A stretch of 63,865 nt of DNA from a virus (taxonomy: Duplodnaviria; Caudoviricetes). The first letter of the stretch is position 1; every line of letters begins with the position of its first letter. The position numbers and the translations under genes were made by a program. This document shows, piece by piece, positions 5,718-59,814 of the stretch. Below the pieces are notes generated by a model. It had not been told where the DNA came from. It searched no databases and saw nothing but the letters and a program-made list of their open reading frames with translations. Location: positions 1 through 63,865 of IMG/VR virus record IMGVR_UViG_3300031857_000159, one strand, 5' to 3'.

Positions 5718-6350
5718 ATGGCTATATTAAATGAAAACATTCAGTCTTTTAAATGCTATGTAAGGTTATCTCATTTTACTAAAAATAAAAAAGACAACAA
5801 TAAATATCATAACGCTTATGCTTTTGGTATTCAATCAGTTACAGGAAAAATATTAACATTTCATGTTATGACTGATTATGGTATGTTAAGGTCAAGAGTT
5901 CCTTTATCAGAAATATTTATAGAGAAACCTAAAAAAGATATACCATTTCACTTTAAACAATTATGGGATTGTTTTTCGGAGAATGTTACTGTAACTAAAT
6001 ATGAATATTTGTCTGAAAAAAGATGTGAAATTGTACTAAAAGACAAATCAAAAGTATGGGCAAAATATTTAATGACTATTGATTGGTATGATAACGCTTA
6101 TTCTAATGAGCCGTCTGATTACAAGTGCGGTCATATTTTAATTTCGGACGATGGCTATTTACTTTGCCAACCAAACAATAGAATATTTTGGAAAGATTCT
6201 AATTGGATAACGAATAAATTTCCTGTTGATGTAAAAAACATAAAAGTTGACAATGAGTTATTTTCCGTTGAAGCCGTTTCGGATAGGTGGATAGCAGACA
6301 ACAATGATTGTTTTTATTACAATATGAATAATGCAAACCATAAAAAATAA
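5718..6350 (+). CDS. conserved phage hypothetical protein (Trp-rich)
   Basis: QLWDCFS, YLMTIDW, KCGH and QPNNR.FW motifs, a pattern I associate with aquatic phages. Confidence 0.7.
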   Translation: MAILNENIQSFKCYVRLSHFTKNKKDNNKYHNAYAFGIQSVTGKILTFHVMTDYGMLRSRVPLSEIFIEKPKKDIPFHFKQLWDCFSENVTVTKYEYLSEKRCEIVLKDKSKVWAKYLMTIDWYDNAYSNEPSDYKCGHILISDDGYLLCQPNNRIFWKDSNWITNKFPVDVKNIKVDNELFSVEAVSDRWIADNNDCFYYNMNNANHKK

Positions 6351-6451: not shown

Positions 6452-8692
6452 ATGATCTTTCCAAAACAGGATATTCCAGACAAGGATAAGACGTTAGCAT
6501 GGGTGAAACTTCACTTAAACTACGCAGAAACTATCCTTAACAGAAGAAACAATATCTATTCAATAATGAGTAGATTGTATAATACTTATAATGGTATTAA
6601 AAATGCTGACGCTTTACGATTCATAGGTAAAACGTATGGAAGAGAAAATAAATCTAAATTTATATCATACCGATTAGGCAGAAACAAGTTAGAATTACTT
6701 AAAGGTGAATACCTTAATCAAGCGCTTAAACCAACAGTTACCACAATAAATTCAGATGCTAAGACTAAGAAACTTGACGAGGCTGATTTAGTTCGCGGAG
6801 CATTAATTGCTCGTAAAGAATTATCTAAGTTAAAAGAAGTTGGGGTTGATGTATTGGAAGGAATGGAATTACCGGAGGGCGATCCAGATGAGGTATGGAA
6901 CCAAATGACTTTCAAGGATAAGAATGAGCACGTTATGCAATTGATATTGGAAAACGGTATCTCTGAATTAGACATGAAGAATAAGCTTTCTAAGAATTTT
7001 CTTGACCTTGAAATTACATCAATGTGTTATGGTAAGATTGATATTGATTTAGAAGGTAACGTTAATTACATTAAGATTGACCCTCGTGATGCTATTTTTG
7101 ACGAAATAGAAGGTGACGACTTTATTGAAAGAGCGCCATTAAAAGGAGCAAGATACAGAATGACTATTTCCGAAATATTAAGGAAATACGATTTGACAAA
7201 AGAACAAAAAGAAATGTTGAAAGGTCTTGAGAATACCGGTAACCAAAATGCAGGTACAAGAAGAGCAACAACATATCAGATAAACGGTGACTTATGTATG
7301 GACGTAGTGCATATAGAATGGATTTCTTATGTTCCGACTTATTATAAGCTATCTCCAAAAACACAAAAACAATTAGAGTTAGATCCAAGTTCTGAATACT
7401 ACACAATTCAAATGGACGCTGCCGAGTATGAGAACAATAGAGAATATTACGATAAGCTTGTAGAAAAAGGCAAGTTACTAGCAATAGAAACTAAATGGGC
7501 AGAAGATATTAGAGAGGCTGTTAGAATTGGCGGTATTATAAGTGTTGACTTAGGACGTAAAAAATTTCAGCCTAGAAGAGTTGATAACCCTAATAGGGTA
7601 GTTGATATGTCTTATGTTGGATACTTATTTAATACGGTAGACGGAATAAGAGTATCATTACAGCAAATTGTAGAGAATTTTGATTCAGCTTTTGATATTT
7701 GTATGTATCAAATTCTTAAAGAATTGAACATTGCAAAAGGAAAAGTTATAGGTTATAACAGAGCAGCTTTACCGCAAAAAAGAACAATGAAAGAAATTAT
7801 TTACGACGTAGTAAATGATGGTTTTGTTGACTTCGATACTTCTGCGGATGGTAACGAATCTGGTAGAGAATTGAATTTAAGAGATTTGATTCAAGTATTA
7901 GATATAGGTTTATCTAGTTCATTCCAACAATTAATCATGTTAAAGAATGATATACGTCAAACTTTAGATTTAATTACAGGGATTAACGAAAACAGACAGG
8001 GTGATATTGCGGCAAGTTCTACCGTTACGAACGCTCAAATAGCAATTACAGCATCTAAAAACATTACTACTCCATTGTTCTACGGAATGAATAAGTTTAC
8101 CGAAAGAGTATTAATGAAAATGTGTGAGTATTATAAATTGTCTTATGGTTTCTTTAAAGTAGAAAAAGGTAAGCAGATTTTAGGCGATACACAACAAAGA
8201 TTTTTGGTAGTTGAAAAAGAAATAGGTTATCAGGATTATGGTGTTGCAATTCAAGACGGCGGAAGATACGCTGAAATGAAAAATAAGATTATGGCTTTGG
8301 CTCAAGTATCATTAAACGCAAAAGAAATAAGATTAGAAGATTTGATGCAATTAGAAACTGCTGAATCATATACTGAAGCTAAAAACATATTAAAGAATGC
8401 GTGGAAGTCTATACAACAAGTGGCTGCTGAACAGCAACAAAGACAGATAGAAGCACAACAGCAAATGCAACAACAACAATTGCAAATGCAACAACAAATG
8501 GCTTTAGAGAATAGAGAAGATATGCAAGCTTCAAGAATTGATGAGATTAATGCTAAAACAGAAGGTCAAATAAGAATTGACGATAACAAAATGGGTAAAC
8601 AAATGATTGTTGATACAAATAATATAGAACAAAAATCTGTTTATAGCGATAAAAATATGGGAGGCACACAGCCCCCAATTCCTCCGATGTAG
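6452..8692 (+). CDS. portal protein
   Basis: follows TerL; 746 aa; FPKQ N-terminus, TGINENRQG motif and Q-rich C-terminal barrel typical of crAss/P22-like portals. Confidence 0.85.
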   Translation: MIFPKQDIPDKDKTLAWVKLHLNYAETILNRRNNIYSIMSRLYNTYNGIKNADALRFIGKTYGRENKSKFISYRLGRNKLELLKGEYLNQALKPTVTTINSDAKTKKLDEADLVRGALIARKELSKLKEVGVDVLEGMELPEGDPDEVWNQMTFKDKNEHVMQLILENGISELDMKNKLSKNFLDLEITSMCYGKIDIDLEGNVNYIKIDPRDAIFDEIEGDDFIERAPLKGARYRMTISEILRKYDLTKEQKEMLKGLENTGNQNAGTRRATTYQINGDLCMDVVHIEWISYVPTYYKLSPKTQKQLELDPSSEYYTIQMDAAEYENNREYYDKLVEKGKLLAIETKWAEDIREAVRIGGIISVDLGRKKFQPRRVDNPNRVVDMSYVGYLFNTVDGIRVSLQQIVENFDSAFDICMYQILKELNIAKGKVIGYNRAALPQKRTMKEIIYDVVNDGFVDFDTSADGNESGRELNLRDLIQVLDIGLSSSFQQLIMLKNDIRQTLDLITGINENRQGDIAASSTVTNAQIAITASKNITTPLFYGMNKFTERVLMKMCEYYKLSYGFFKVEKGKQILGDTQQRFLVVEKEIGYQDYGVAIQDGGRYAEMKNKIMALAQVSLNAKEIRLEDLMQLETAESYTEAKNILKNAWKSIQQVAAEQQQRQIEAQQQMQQQQLQMQQQMALENREDMQASRIDEINAKTEGQIRIDDNKMGKQMIVDTNNIEQKSVYSDKNMGGTQPPIPPM

Positions 8693-11524: not shown

Positions 11525-11543
11525 TTAGTTCTTTAAAATAATA

Positions 11544-47039: not shown

Positions 47040-47108
47040 GATTTCTTCATAGTTGTTTTAATTAGATTGATTAATTAGTTCTTAAAGCGGGGTTTATTCT
47101 CCGCTTTT
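47040..47108 (+). ncRNA. candidate sRNA 1 (promoter TATCTTTG 47028-47035; ends in hairpin terminator 47084-47108)
   Basis: no ORF between promoter and terminator; body is antisense to an A-rich AUG context. Confidence 0.5.
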
Positions 47109-55100: not shown

Positions 55101-55559
55101 TTATTTTTTCTTACTAAACTTTTTCTTTGCTTCCGACTTAACTTTATCAAGACTGTTTAGTTCTCTTTTGTAGTTCTCGTTCAGTCTTTTTTGTTCGTTC
55201 TGTAACTTTGCTTCGCGGTCTTTAACACGTTTGCTGATGGTTTCAGGCATCAATATAGCTTCGTCAGGCAATACACAGAATAAAGCTACTTCGTGCATAA
55301 TAAAGTAATAGTTACCTTCAAAACGAATAGTTCTGTTTTCAAGGATGTTAAACATTACTTTGCTTCCTACTTTGATACGAGGATCACAATTATCAGCAAC
55401 AGCCATTACTCTACCAATATTATTTTCTTCGGCGCTTTCTGTTAAGATAATTTTTGATACTTCTTTTTCTTCTTTGATTTTTTCTAAAATCACTGACTTG
55501 TTTAGTGGAATCGGAAATCCTGCCGGAACATCGAATCCTTTTTTTGTTGTTTTACTCAT
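55101..55559 (-). CDS. groES: co-chaperonin GroES-like protein with basic C-terminal extension
   Basis: PLNKSVIL..IIL..A....GRVMAV....IKVG.KV.F motif. Confidence 0.75.
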   Translation of the reverse strand: MSKTTKKGFDVPAGFPIPLNKSVILEKIKEEKEVSKIILTESAEENNIGRVMAVADNCDPRIKVGSKVMFNILENRTIRFEGNYYFIMHEVALFCVLPDEAILMPETISKRVKDREAKLQNEQKRLNENYKRELNSLDKVKSEAKKKFSKKK

Positions 55560-56833: not shown

Positions 56834-58438
56834 TTAAAAGAATGGATTACCATTATTGTTAGGTGTGTATTTATTTACTACTTCTTTATTTTCTCTTTTT
56901 TCTATTTCGTTAAGCGCCATTTTAAATTCAGATATTGTTACTCCATTACTAACGTCGTAACCTTTCCATTTTAATAAACCAATTTGTTTTTCTGTTGCTG
57001 GTTGTGCGCTGATAATTTCACTACACATTTTCTTTGTGTATTCTACATTAACTGTATCATATCCTAAACGAGCTATCCATGCTAATTGTTTTTCGGTAGC
57101 AGGCTCTTCCATCTTAATAGAGTTACTAATATAAACTTTTGGTAACGCGAATAAATCAACTTTAACGTCTTTTTTAGATGTAGCTACTACATAGGCTATC
57201 TTTCTTTCTCTTTCATCAATTAAGGCTTTCTTTTTAGCCTTAGTCATGAATACTTTCTCTTCCGTTGCTTTGCCTGAATCTAAGCTCCAAGCGTTAATTA
57301 GCTTGTGCCTTGTTGTACTATCAACAAAATCAAGTATGACACAATTCTGCCCGTATTTAGCAATAAAGTTCTCATCTTTTAAACGGGTGCCTCTGCCGAT
57401 ACATTGCAAATATTTAGATAACGACTTAGTCGGAGCGCAATTACCTATAACTCCCGTGTTTCTGTGATCGAATCCAGTAGTTAAAATACCTACATTAGTT
57501 AATACTTGTATTTTACCCGCTTTAAAATCTTTAATGGTTTGTGACCTATCTCCTGTTGATTCTTCATCAGACGAAACAGCATTACAAATAATTCCTTGTG
57601 ATTTAAACTCTTCTGCTAAATGTAAGCTATGTTTAATATCAACACAAAAGAAAATACCCTGTCTTCCTTCTGCGTATGTTTTGTACGAATCTACAATTAG
57701 TTTATTCCTTTGAGGTATATCTACTTCGTTTGATAAATCTTTAGCGTTAAATTCACCGCCTGTTGTTCTGACGTTATCAAGTGATAAATCAGTTTTAATT
57801 CTTACAGCATCTAACTCGCACAAGTAACCGTCTTTAACTCCGTCCGCAATATCGTAACTATAAACTATTTTATCAAACATATTACCTAACTGCATACCAT
57901 CTAAACGCGTAGGCGTTGCCGTTAATCCCAATAATAGTTTAGGTTCAAAGTATTTTAAAGGATCGGAGAATGTACGACTAAGGAATAGGTGAGCTTCGTC
58001 ACAGATAATAGCATCAAAATGGTCTTTTGGTAATTTATCTAATCTTCTGTATAGCGTTTGAGCAGAAGCCATTACTACGCTTCCATCAGGATAAAAAGCA
58101 TCTGCCTTTATTAATCCCATTCTGAATTTAATACCTCTACATCCGAACATTCCCGAACCATTATGGACCCAATTAATGAATCCTATATCTTCAACAGCAT
58201 CAGTAAGCTCCTTATCAAACTTTTCGGATAAAAAGGCTAAGGCTGATTGTTGTACTAATTCTTCGGTATGGGTAATCCACAATACACGCTGAAAGTTAAA
58301 TTGTTCTATGGCTTTAACGGCGGTAAAGGTTTTGCCTGTGCCGGTTGCCATTACTAATAACTGTTTCTTAACGCCATTGTCAAGTTCTTTCTTAACAGCA
58401 TCAATAGCTTTGATTTGATAATCTCTTAATGGTTTCAT
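56834..58438 (-). CDS. SF2 DEAH helicase (Irc3/YejH-like)
   Basis: LRDYQ, ATGTGKT, DEAH, GLTATP and QCIGRGTR motifs; ATEKQ repeats. Confidence 0.92.
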   Translation of the reverse strand: MKPLRDYQIKAIDAVKKELDNGVKKQLLVMATGTGKTFTAVKAIEQFNFQRVLWITHTEELVQQSALAFLSEKFDKELTDAVEDIGFINWVHNGSGMFGCRGIKFRMGLIKADAFYPDGSVVMASAQTLYRRLDKLPKDHFDAIICDEAHLFLSRTFSDPLKYFEPKLLLGLTATPTRLDGMQLGNMFDKIVYSYDIADGVKDGYLCELDAVRIKTDLSLDNVRTTGGEFNAKDLSNEVDIPQRNKLIVDSYKTYAEGRQGIFFCVDIKHSLHLAEEFKSQGIICNAVSSDEESTGDRSQTIKDFKAGKIQVLTNVGILTTGFDHRNTGVIGNCAPTKSLSKYLQCIGRGTRLKDENFIAKYGQNCVILDFVDSTTRHKLINAWSLDSGKATEEKVFMTKAKKKALIDERERKIAYVVATSKKDVKVDLFALPKVYISNSIKMEEPATEKQLAWIARLGYDTVNVEYTKKMCSEIISAQPATEKQIGLLKWKGYDVSNGVTISEFKMALNEIEKRENKEVVNKYTPNNNGNPFF

Positions 58439-58449
58439 TTATTACCTGA

Positions 58450-58880
58450 TAGTTTAATGTTCTAAAAGCGGTTTTAAATAGCCGTAGACCGCTACTACGC
58501 TAACTTACGATTTAGTTTCTTAGTGGTTGGTTGTGAATGCTATTCACATTAACCAAACTTGAAAGCTTACGTTCTCTGCGCGCATCAGAGATTTTGTAGC
58601 CAAGACAGGTACTGCCCCTGTTTCTTAGTATTTTGCTTTTTATCGCGCAACTATGAGTTACTTTTACTCTACCTGACTATGTAATCGCGCTTCAAGTTAT
58701 TTGTTTCTTACGATACGTGTAGCACCTATATTATTACATTAATGCTATTCTACGCTATGTAATAAGCCTCAACCATCAATCACAAACCTGCATAAAACAG
58801 GACTTACTTGAAACGCAACAATTTCGCAGGGGCTATGATTTTCTTACGGGAATAGAGCATAACAATTACCCTGCAATGCT
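58450..58880 (-). ncRNA. cluster of structured non-coding RNA elements in the helicase leader
   Basis: no ORF of 60 aa or more; promoter TAATTTTG (58907-58900); at least 5 stems plus a tRNA-like fold. Confidence 0.6.
58597..58678 (-). ncRNA. tRNA-like element with non-canonical anticodon arm
   Basis: acceptor AGUCAGG/CUUGGCU, U8A9, D arm GAGU-AAAAGUA-ACUC, T arm ACAGG-GGCAGUA-CCUGU; no encoded CCA. Confidence 0.7.
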
Positions 58881-58892
58881 TTTAAAGAACTA

Positions 58893-59204
58893 ATTTGTGC
58901 AAAATTACAAATAAAATCATTACTTTCCAAATAAATTTTTACAAAAGAATAATGATTGTTGAAAACATTATTTAATTACCTGTATTTATAAGCTATTTTA
59001 ATACCTCCTCAGAACTATCGGTATGTTACAAATTAATTTAGAATAAATCTAAACAAGTATCAATTTATCAGATAGTTAAGTATTAAATTGTAAAAACTTT
59101 ACAATTACATAAAAATAATCAGCTTAATTATCAGACAGTTACAACTTATGTTAATGTAAAATTGTAATATGTATTGATTTTAAGCGTTTTATATTTTACA
59201 TTTG
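58893..59204. promoter_or_regulatory. divergent control region
   Basis: TAATTTTG (-) and TACATTTG (+, 59197) promoters, palindromes, Fur-like box 59036-59054, IHF-like WATCAR-N4-TTR boxes. Confidence 0.6.
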
Positions 59205-59214
59205 CGTATAAATT

Positions 59215-59814
59215 TTGAATATTTTCAGAATTTATATAAATAATATAAAAACTATCAAAGTGGGAATCAACAGACAGGGAAACAATCGCAGGGTTCAAAA
59301 GACTGAAATTGAAACTTTATTGGATTTTAGAGAACTATCAATTCATAAATCCAATAGAGTTATTACTAAAAACTTTACAGCGTATATAACAGGATCCGAA
59401 ACAAATCTTGCAAGACTACTGACGTTTTTAATATTTGAAGCAAAGAGAAATAACGTATTAGAATTTAATACTCACTTGTTAGTTAAGTACGGGCAATATT
59501 TAGAAGCTGTTCAAAATAAGTTTGGTAATGAAGTTAAGACGCGTAAAACGGTAATGTTTAACAGAAATGATTTTCAGCAGTTAGTAAGGTTAGGAATTAT
59601 CATCCCAATTGTACCTAAAGAGAAATTGTTTTTAATAAACCCGGCGTTAACATACCATGAAGGTTACTACAATGAACAAGCAACTTACATGAAAGCTTAC
59701 GAGAACATCTATGCGCTGTATGTTTTTGGAGGATACGATAAAAAGGTATTACATTCTTTAATAGTAACGGCGGCAAAAGAGTTTTATAATAATTGTTTAA
59801 ATAAAAATATATGA
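59215..59814 (+). CDS. winged-helix (RepL-like) protein; likely start GTG 59260
   Basis: LV.LGII......FLINP motif; AACTATCA precedes the GTG. Confidence 0.55.
   Translation: MNIFRIYINNIKTIKVGINRQGNNRRVQKTEIETLLDFRELSIHKSNRVITKNFTAYITGSETNLARLLTFLIFEAKRNNVLEFNTHLLVKYGQYLEAVQNKFGNEVKTRKTVMFNRNDFQQLVRLGIIIPIVPKEKLFLINPALTYHEGYYNEQATYMKAYENIYALYVFGGYDKKVLHSLIVTAAKEFYNNCLNKNI

Follow-up and report, generated by a model that had tools for sequence, protein, structure and literature searches.

A conserved RNA fold, predicted upstream of a phage helicase gene and led by an rRNA-type boxA

The gene-free stretch 5' of a helicase gene in a 63.9-kb virus record is predicted, from the comparison of related sequences, to encode a conserved folded RNA which is led by a boxA of the rRNA type; only its 5' half is conserved. 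In this element an uncultured freshwater phage with Bacteroidota-type signals joins what appears to be a boxA of its host to a well-supported fold that is absent from the catalogues. Throughout, the window is the whole stretch of 63,865 nt that was analysed, and positions count from its first letter.

Results

The gene-free gap and its neighbourhood

The record has an estimated completeness of 84% and a GC content of 0.328 over the whole window. Its genes are organized into a structural module on the + strand and a replication module (SF2 helicase, DnaB-like helicase, RusA, HNH) on the - strand. A divergent gap of 776 nt (58439-59214) separates the helicase gene (58438-56834, -) on one side from a + strand ORF starting at 59215 on the other. 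It is longer than every other gap between ORFs of at least 80 aa in the window, so that its designation as the largest ORF-free stretch in the first-pass annotation holds. The same annotation had called the stretch GC-enriched. This is the case with regard to the adjacent spacer only: GC is 0.35-0.39 over 58400-58900, compared with 0.20-0.24 in the spacer and 0.328 window-wide. Two elements border the RNA:

56834..58438, - strand: Superfamily-2 DNA helicase gene, first gene of the replication module (PHROG phrog_16, E 6.7e-87; Pfam ResIII and Helicase_C)
58908..59214, no strand assigned: AT-rich divergent control region, GC 0.20-0.24

Within the control region, a 14-nt direct repeat, TTATCAGA[T/C]AGTTA, occurs at 59065-59078 and 59128-59141. 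The two copies are 63 nt apart and flank a palindrome (59081-59111). The whole region 58908-59214 is a candidate operator or origin, and the cumulative GC skew has its minimum at the gap.

An SD-like motif is found in only 6 of 62 genes, and the leaders consist of A to 50%. Scarce SD motifs, A-rich leaders and the promoter motif described below point to a phage host of the Bacteroidota type, a phylum in which transcription and translation signals differ from those of model bacteria. On the - strand no intrinsic-terminator-like site was found in the 12-kb replication operon. Where the + strand structural and the - strand replication modules converge, a strong 9-bp GC-rich hairpin with T runs is situated at 47084-47107, likely a bidirectional terminator. 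Elsewhere in the window, a ferredoxin-family gene (5718-6350; phrog_3704, E 1.8e-38) adjoins the terminase, and a gene for a GroES-like co-chaperonin (55101-55559; phrog_3188, E 5e-11) lies within the replication module.

Promoter and boxA

Two signals head the RNA:

58900..58931, - strand: Bacteroidota-type promoter, with TTTG at 58931-58928, a 20-nt spacer and TAATTTTG at 58907-58900
58880..58890, - strand: boxA-like element GUUCUUUAAAA, an exact match a few nt from the inferred transcript start

Both had been proposed before and both were recovered here: TAATTTTG with TTTG 20 nt upstream, and GTTCTTTAAAA at 58890-58880, a few nt after the promoter and matching the motif in Bacteroidota 16S leaders. 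The promoter corresponds to the Bacteroidota bipartite motif as defined in PMC7366714. In the whole window, both strands included, the pattern TTTG-N18-22-TAnnTTTG has only 7 matches, one of which is 58931-58900; several of the others also precede ORF starts.

The boxA-like element is identical and at the same position in two relatives, L001 and L236 (see below). A third one, L232, has unrelated flanks and carries GTTCTTTGAAAAC behind a TAACTTTG promoter of its own (its boxA form is also given as GUUCUUUGAAAAC), while the fourth, L004, has a poor match only. The placement is that of the rrn type, just 3' of the promoter and ahead of approximately 450 nt of untranslated RNA up to the helicase AUG. 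This arrangement of promoter, boxA and untranslated RNA is the same in L236 and L232; in L001 an ORF comes before it. Among 12 sampled Bacteroidota genomes, nine have GTTCTTT[G/A]A 88-220 nt 5' of the 16S start, and the element in the window appears to be the same motif as in these rRNA leaders of the host phylum. Their location and the boxA consensus of Firmicutes and E. coli suggest that these Bacteroidota rrn motifs are functional boxA elements. PMC10250234 describes boxA as both required and sufficient for the rrn antitermination complex to form, and this complex as resistant to Rho.

The motif is not enriched in the window: allowing one mismatch at most, there are 13 matches against 12.3 expected. 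The sole other exact GTTCTTTAAAA is located at 11528-11538 (+), in an intergenic gap of 73 nt, where it follows the gene for the major head protein at a distance of 4 nt.

Hairpin P0 and a five-helix domain

Following the boxA, the conserved part of the RNA consists of these elements:

58824..58876, - strand: hairpin P0, with an 8-bp outer stem, an irregular middle, an apical 3-bp stem and the conserved loop CCGUAA
58689..58814, - strand: conserved core domain of 126 nt, P1-P5 around an invariant junction
58814-58806 with 58697-58689, - strand: P1, closing the domain in all five sequences
58801-58787, - strand: P2, a side hairpin missing in L004
58786-58782 with 58704-58700, - strand: P3 (alignment A3)
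58776-58772 with 58714-58710, - strand: P4 (alignment A3)
58747-58741 with 58726-58720, - strand: P5, with a variable loop
58771-58765 (UGAGGCU), then 58756-58738 (AGCGUAGAAUAGCAUUAAU), then GGUGCUACA, - strand: invariant junction (alignment A3)

The helices P1-P5 were derived from an unfitted MAFFT alignment, A3, to which six records contribute five distinct sequences: the window, L001, L236 (= L233), L232 and L004, three of which belong to one phage lineage. In A3, 91.2% of the 148 pair cells are paired, compared with 31-42% when the partners are slid by 1-3 columns, and 14 of 30 pairs changed on both sides (0-4 when slid). Not one of 500 shuffles equalled the alignment in pairing, in double changes or in covariation score, whereas 22 of the 500 had as many further pair types. 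In these counts P1 of L004, which MAFFT misaligned, is scored as unpaired, and the 7 pairs of P5 are invariant across the sequences and hence uninformative either way. RNAalifold independently gives P1-P5, plus a 3-bp GCU/AGC helix in the core. With the covariance model R1 the window scores 143 bits over 58823-58680. Two other alignments were left out of the evidence: the model-fitted alignment A4, whose pair count includes two spurious rows from the window (E 0.39 and 3.4), and an anchored global alignment, which is biased by its chosen identical ends.

Of the paired cells in A3, 25 are G-U or U-G and would be A-C mismatches on the opposite strand; therefore, the fold belongs to the helicase-sense RNA. 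Variant contigs from lake metagenomes also keep P1 and P4 paired through changes at 58690, 58697, 58775 and 58712, which by our own mapping onto the window are U-G to U-A, U-A to U-G, U-G to C-G and G-C to G-U. Approximately 70 nt of the domain junction hardly vary at all, also where two phages have no other similarity in the vicinity.

P0 could be compared in three sequences. Its outer stem is formed by UUGCAGGG (58876-58869) and CCCUGCGA (58831-58824). Of 33 cells 97% are paired, against 29-50% when slid, and 3 of 11 pairs changed on both sides; this was matched by 37 of 500 shuffles, a weak statistic as only two lineages are represented.

All stems named in the first-pass annotation are present on the - strand, among them its long-range stem, UGCGUUUCAAGU (58817-58806) with ACUUGAAGCGCG (58697-58686), enclosing 108 nt. 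Its two 5' stems had been regarded as a real structured ncRNA in helicase sense, and the compensatory changes in the relatives bear this out; the covariation it had asked for was found for the 5' half (the 14 of 30 pairs above). Small peptides had been named as another possible explanation of the region. For the 5' half, no sense-strand ORF of at least 20 aa is common to the window and L001. For 58439-58900 the folding z-score is -1.9 on either strand; taken separately, the 5' half has -2.5 and the 3' half -1.8. Thermodynamics alone gives weak support for structure, and strong comparative evidence is confined to the 5' half.

In all five sequences the 5' strand of P3 (58786-58782) can alternatively pair with the invariant GUAGA at 58753-58749. 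This pairing is perfect Watson-Crick in L004, its evidence being one-sided changes only, and it could be a pseudoknot or a switch.

Relatives and distribution

A single close relative of the helicase protein turned up in the viral collection, that of L001 (87% identity). L001 and the window have only the 5' approximately 215 nt of the RNA in common, and from the end of the RNA in L001 it is 38 nt to the helicase ATG. The same distance of 38 nt between domain and helicase start is found in L236, where the order of promoter, boxA, P0, domain and helicase is as in the window. The domain is directly 5' of the helicase in these three phages, and their flanks are mosaic. Between the window and L001, helicase DNA is 79% identical (protein 87%) and the RNA 75-81%, with a different ORF in the upstream region. 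Between the window and L236, identity reaches 91% in the control region and divergent ORF, 76-84% in the RNA and 66% in helicase DNA (protein 49%); here the homology breaks at the 3' strand of P1.

An invariant 19-mer and an 18-mer from the core pulled L004 from the viral collection. Searching metagenomes with the 18-mer gave 7 stretches, of which L232 and L233/L236 are real and the other 4 are without flanking similarity; L233 and L236 are identical over the compared stretch. Altogether, the 18-mer with flanking similarity is found in 3 records of the viral collection, that of the window included, and in 3 metagenome contigs. None of 5 stretches with the exact 18-mer in genome_contigs has flanking similarity.

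The context is a different one in L004 and L232. In L004 the domain is situated inside an ORF-free stretch of approximately 800 nt, with an unknown ORF 380 nt downstream; in L232 it is inside a stretch of more than 1 kb without an ORF over 49 aa, with a tRNA 480 nt downstream. In both, approximately 200 nt or more lie between the domain and a boxA-like motif. These two have only the 70-nt core in common, at 96% identity. The L004 phage shares with the window only distant terminase, portal and capsid proteins (21-25% identity). Therefore, no phage protein co-occurs with the RNA, and if it has a partner, this would more probably be a small molecule or a component of the host.

Some neighbours of the RNA are worth recording. 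The tRNA of L232 (1057-1161; Rfam, 52 bits) has an insertion of approximately 38 nt in the anticodon-loop region and was missed by ARAGORN. Directly 5' of the RNA in L001, a 111-aa ORF (2399-2734) matches phrog_2428, of unknown function, and shows a sub-threshold similarity (E 0.0015, 19 bits, cut-off 27) to the Pfam Acb2/Tad1 hairpin domain of anti-defence sponges. Two genes 5' of the L004 copy of the RNA is a GIY-YIG homing-endonuclease-like ORF (L297 in G002, 6967-7491; Pfam, E 1e-05), which may bear on the movement of the 70-nt core between phages.

Wider searches added no further members. Two gapped patterns gave 108 and at least 118 stretches in the viral collection, the flanks being examined for 80 loci per pattern; nhmmer on 231 loci matched no record beyond the three already known. 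With a tighter pattern there were 14 stretches, 12 of them new, with a best model score of 15.7 bits (E 0.033) for a sequence without P5, judged to be noise. Upstream of 16 distant helicase homologues (24-41% identity), model R1 found nothing better than E = 2. On 151 sampled Bacteroidota genomes it gave no match, in a run without positive control which for this reason shows little. In GenBank phages, blastn in distant mode with the whole region, the insert or the 5' half returned only chance or helicase-coding matches.

The 3' half looks like a recent insertion

The elements of the 3' half are:

58463..58688, - strand: lineage-specific insertion of approximately 226 nt, boundaries good to a few nt
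58690-58645, - strand: the 'tRNA-like unit' of the first-pass annotation
58621-58605, - strand: insert hairpin
58591-58573, - strand: hairpin UCUCUG/CAGAGA, in the sequence as named
58556-58527, - strand: hairpin UUGGUU-AUGUGAAU/AUUCACA-ACCAA, in the sequence as named
58493-58467, - strand: hairpin AGCGGU/ACCGCU, followed by UUUU

The region had been interpreted as one multi-domain unit of 430 nt, laid out like a processed ncRNA polycistron. For the processing no support was found: no sequencing run recorded as RNA contains the stretch, and a single run labelled RNA is probably DNA. As a conserved unit this does not stand, since the 3' approximately 226 nt are absent from the two closest relatives. 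L001 and L236 lack 58688-58463; the sequence resumes at a common GAACAUUAAACU and the RNA runs straight to the helicase start. The tRNA-like unit and the three 3' hairpins of the supposed polycistron are missing with it, so that the insert hairpins find no comparative support in these two relatives. Nor is the tRNA-like unit recognizable as a tRNA: ARAGORN reports 0 genes in the window, and Rfam has no tRNA match at E up to 10 over 58300-59300. Against 401 Bacteroidota genomes the 101-nt 'tRNA-like' part gave a single match, in a coding region, judged to be chance.

The insert has 11 8-mers in common with P0 and the domain, compared with 1.25 in dinucleotide shuffles (reached by 0 of 500), the P1 5' strand and parts of the invariant core being among them. 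It looks like a scrambled re-use or a duplication of motifs of the domain. In the variant contig X12, all 20 substitutions and 4 indels fall outside 58407-58689, 14 of the substitutions and the 4 indels being within 58690-58868; the insert has 0 differences. An insert that is identical to the letter in a background diverged by approximately 10% suggests recent spread by recombination or else extreme constraint. We take the 3' approximately 226 nt to be, by all appearance, a recent insertion outside the conserved device, and the first reading is corrected to this extent: half of the proposed polycistron is probably an insertion that spread recently. In the viral collection, a stem-anchored pattern of the insert gave 0 stretches. 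A search of the insert for terminal inverted repeats gave none.

In lake metagenomes, short contigs of higher depth from other organisms match 58593-58680 at 80-90% and run into a tRNA 5' half or a boxA-like GTTCTTTGAAAA. These matches point to a wider family of tRNA-adjacent elements. Two complementarities are specific to the window: 58556-58563 in the insert with 58691-58698 in the P1 3' strand (8 nt, 100%), which results from the re-used motifs, and 58649-58660 in the insert with 58443-58454 in the translation-initiation region of the helicase (12 nt, 83%).

Known RNA families

At gathering scores, Rfam 15 has 0 matches in the window, and the comparison of 58300-59300 with Rfam, a check suggested beforehand, returned only four chance matches of 13-18 bits at E up to 10. 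On L001, L004, L232 and L236 Rfam gave only a chance miRNA match and the tRNA of L232; with ARAGORN, neither the window nor L001, L004, L232 or L270 yielded a tRNA. Complementarity of the core to Bacteroidota 16S loci is restricted to scattered 9-13-mers. Of 45 ORFs scanned, none matches a PHROG family annotated as N or Q antiterminator, leaving room for small unannotated ORFs.

Two specific candidates were rejected. The sequence CUGAG...AGCGUAG resembles the TPP riboswitch, but even at E up to 10 Rfam returned no TPP match. A nut boxB of the lambda type does not agree with P0, which is 53 nt long with a 6-nt loop, nor is there an N-type antiterminator among the 45 scanned ORFs.

Discussion

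Possible functions

The reading that we prefer, although we rate it somewhat below an even chance, is a boxA-protected untranslated leader of the replication operon, the portable domain of which would bind RNA polymerase or a factor of the host. Transcription of the replication module on the - strand would begin at the promoter 58931-58900, and the transcript would present GUUCUUUAAAA within a few nt. Host NusB and S10 would bind this boxA, and RNA polymerase would become an antitermination complex of the rrn type, which would shield the long untranslated RNA from Rho and carry transcription into the helicase operon. That boxA gives such Rho-resistant transcription of a long untranslated RNA is strongly suggested. 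The approximately 190 nt after boxA would then fold into P0 and the P1-P5 domain, a fold which itself is observed by covariation. In the weakest step, the domain would be the working partner of boxA: it would attach in cis to a conserved host component, which may be a Nus factor, RNA polymerase or some other protein, and so bound it would set the expression of the replication genes, as do nut boxB, HK022 put and the Bacillus EAR RNAs. As no - strand terminator-like site was found in the 12-kb operon, boxA alone could suffice, and this counts against a role of the domain in overriding terminators. Against the leader counts that the layout in L232 and L004 fits a stand-alone RNA at least as well, that the boxA of L004 is poor, that there are five sequences and that the domain is absent upstream of 16 distant helicase homologues. 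Doubtful, in our estimate, is the more specific proposal that the domain is either a portable put- or EAR-like device acting on the Bacteroidota transcription machinery, which would load beside boxA, remain on the elongation complex and reprogram it, or a new class of riboswitch gating replication genes.

The contexts of L232 and L004 make another explanation nearly as likely as the leader: a stable trans-acting ncRNA, transcribed in a unit resembling an rRNA or tRNA operon, that binds or decoys a conserved host component, whose synthesis and folding are secured by boxA and for which the helicase is merely what lies downstream. This is a serious possibility, if on the unlikely side. The stretch of more than 1 kb ending in a tRNA in L232, the 800-nt ORF-free stretch in L004 and a 70-nt core 96% identical in these otherwise unrelated contexts would all suit such an RNA, as would a domain that is self-contained and closed by P1 in all five sequences. 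However, the window, L001 and L236 have neither a terminator nor an evident processing site between domain and helicase start, and the domain was not found in the 151 sampled Bacteroidota genomes. We consider it rather improbable that the RNA is a riboswitch-like sensor, in which a small molecule or ion would bind the junction, stabilize P1 and alter transcription or translation of the replication genes. Its architecture does resemble an aptamer, with covarying helices around invariant, possibly pseudoknotted junction nucleotides and with P1 beside the downstream gene in 3 phages; alternative partners are at hand for the P3 5' strand (the invariant GUAGA) and, in the window, for the P1 3' strand (the perfect 8-nt match downstream). 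But these alternative pairings show one-sided changes only, Rfam has no riboswitch match, and a terminator or an element masking the start site that would be common to the members was not found: L001 and L236 lack a conserved expression platform, having no terminator and an A-rich open leader. Furthermore, what follows the domain belongs to no common pathway (helicase in three sequences, elsewhere an unknown ORF at a distance of 380 nt or a tRNA at 480 nt), and in 2 of the 5 sequences the next gene is 380-480 nt away.

The AT-rich region next to the promoter raises the question of a replication origin, which transcription from the promoter would activate or prime, with the RNA as primer or activator. 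In favour of it, the RNA heads replication genes at the cumulative GC-skew minimum and adjoins a divergent region of GC 0.20-0.24 with a 14-nt direct repeat and palindromes, which is 91% kept in L236 although the neighbouring helicase DNA is at 66%. However, transcription is directed away from this region, the switch of the gene strand explains the skew minimum equally well, the sequence upstream in L001 is an unrelated ORF, the contexts of L004 and L232 differ, and the strand-specific G-U pairs argue for an RNA fold and not a DNA site. We hold a part in an origin to be improbable. Only a very slight chance is left to a spacer without function apart from boxA, the helices being kept by shared ancestry or by chance. 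It would accord with a rare family (3 viral-collection records and 3 metagenome contigs) of few sequences, three of them from one lineage, and with modest z-scores of -1.8 to -2.5; but 14 of 30 pairs have double-sided compensatory changes against 0-4 when slid, the 70-nt core is 96% identical between contexts without other similarity, and the population variants keep the pairing.

Post-transcriptional control in Bacteroidota is poorly known. A domain that acts on the transcription complex, or one that senses a ligand, would open an RNA-based control of phage replication genes and would provide a compact, portable part for engineering Bacteroidota. As a put- or EAR-like device or a riboswitch it would be, among the phages of Bacteroidota, the first RNA controller described as acting in cis; a trans-acting RNA would join the small set of enigmatic phage RNAs near tRNAs.

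Comparison with known systems

Examples of untranslated RNAs led by a boxA are found in rRNA operons, in CRISPR leaders and at the nut sites of lambda. With the rrn leader and its antitermination complex (NusB, NusE/S10, NusA, NusG, SuhB, S4), the RNA described here has in common the motif, which is found in 9 of 12 Bacteroidota 16S leaders, its position just past a promoter of the host type, and the long, highly folded untranslated RNA that follows it and is closed by a long-range helix. Unlike the rrn leader, it is phage-borne and leads to protein-coding replication genes, its fold has no similarity to rRNA leaders, and there is no boxB or boxC that could be named.

Processive antitermination in cis is exerted by the HK022 put RNA, the Bacillus EAR RNA and, together with protein N, the boxA and boxB of lambda nut. 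Like these, our RNA is portable and is promoter-proximal or intercistronic in an early or replication operon of a phage; as in lambda nut, boxA is directly followed by a hairpin (P0) with a conserved loop. It differs from all three in being far larger (P0 plus a five-helix domain of 126 nt) and in lacking sequence or Rfam similarity, an N-type antiterminator among the 45 scanned ORFs, and downstream intrinsic terminators to override. A third group comprises stable RNAs encoded by phages. Two stable RNAs of T4 that have no known function are transcribed together with its tRNAs. To these species 1 and 2 RNAs, as well as to GOLLD and ROOL, our RNA is similar in its elaborate, phage-encoded fold and, in L232, in its ORF-free unit with a tRNA. 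Compared with GOLLD and ROOL it is much smaller and has no Rfam match (provided that both are in the library), and in three phages it forms the 5' leader of an mRNA.
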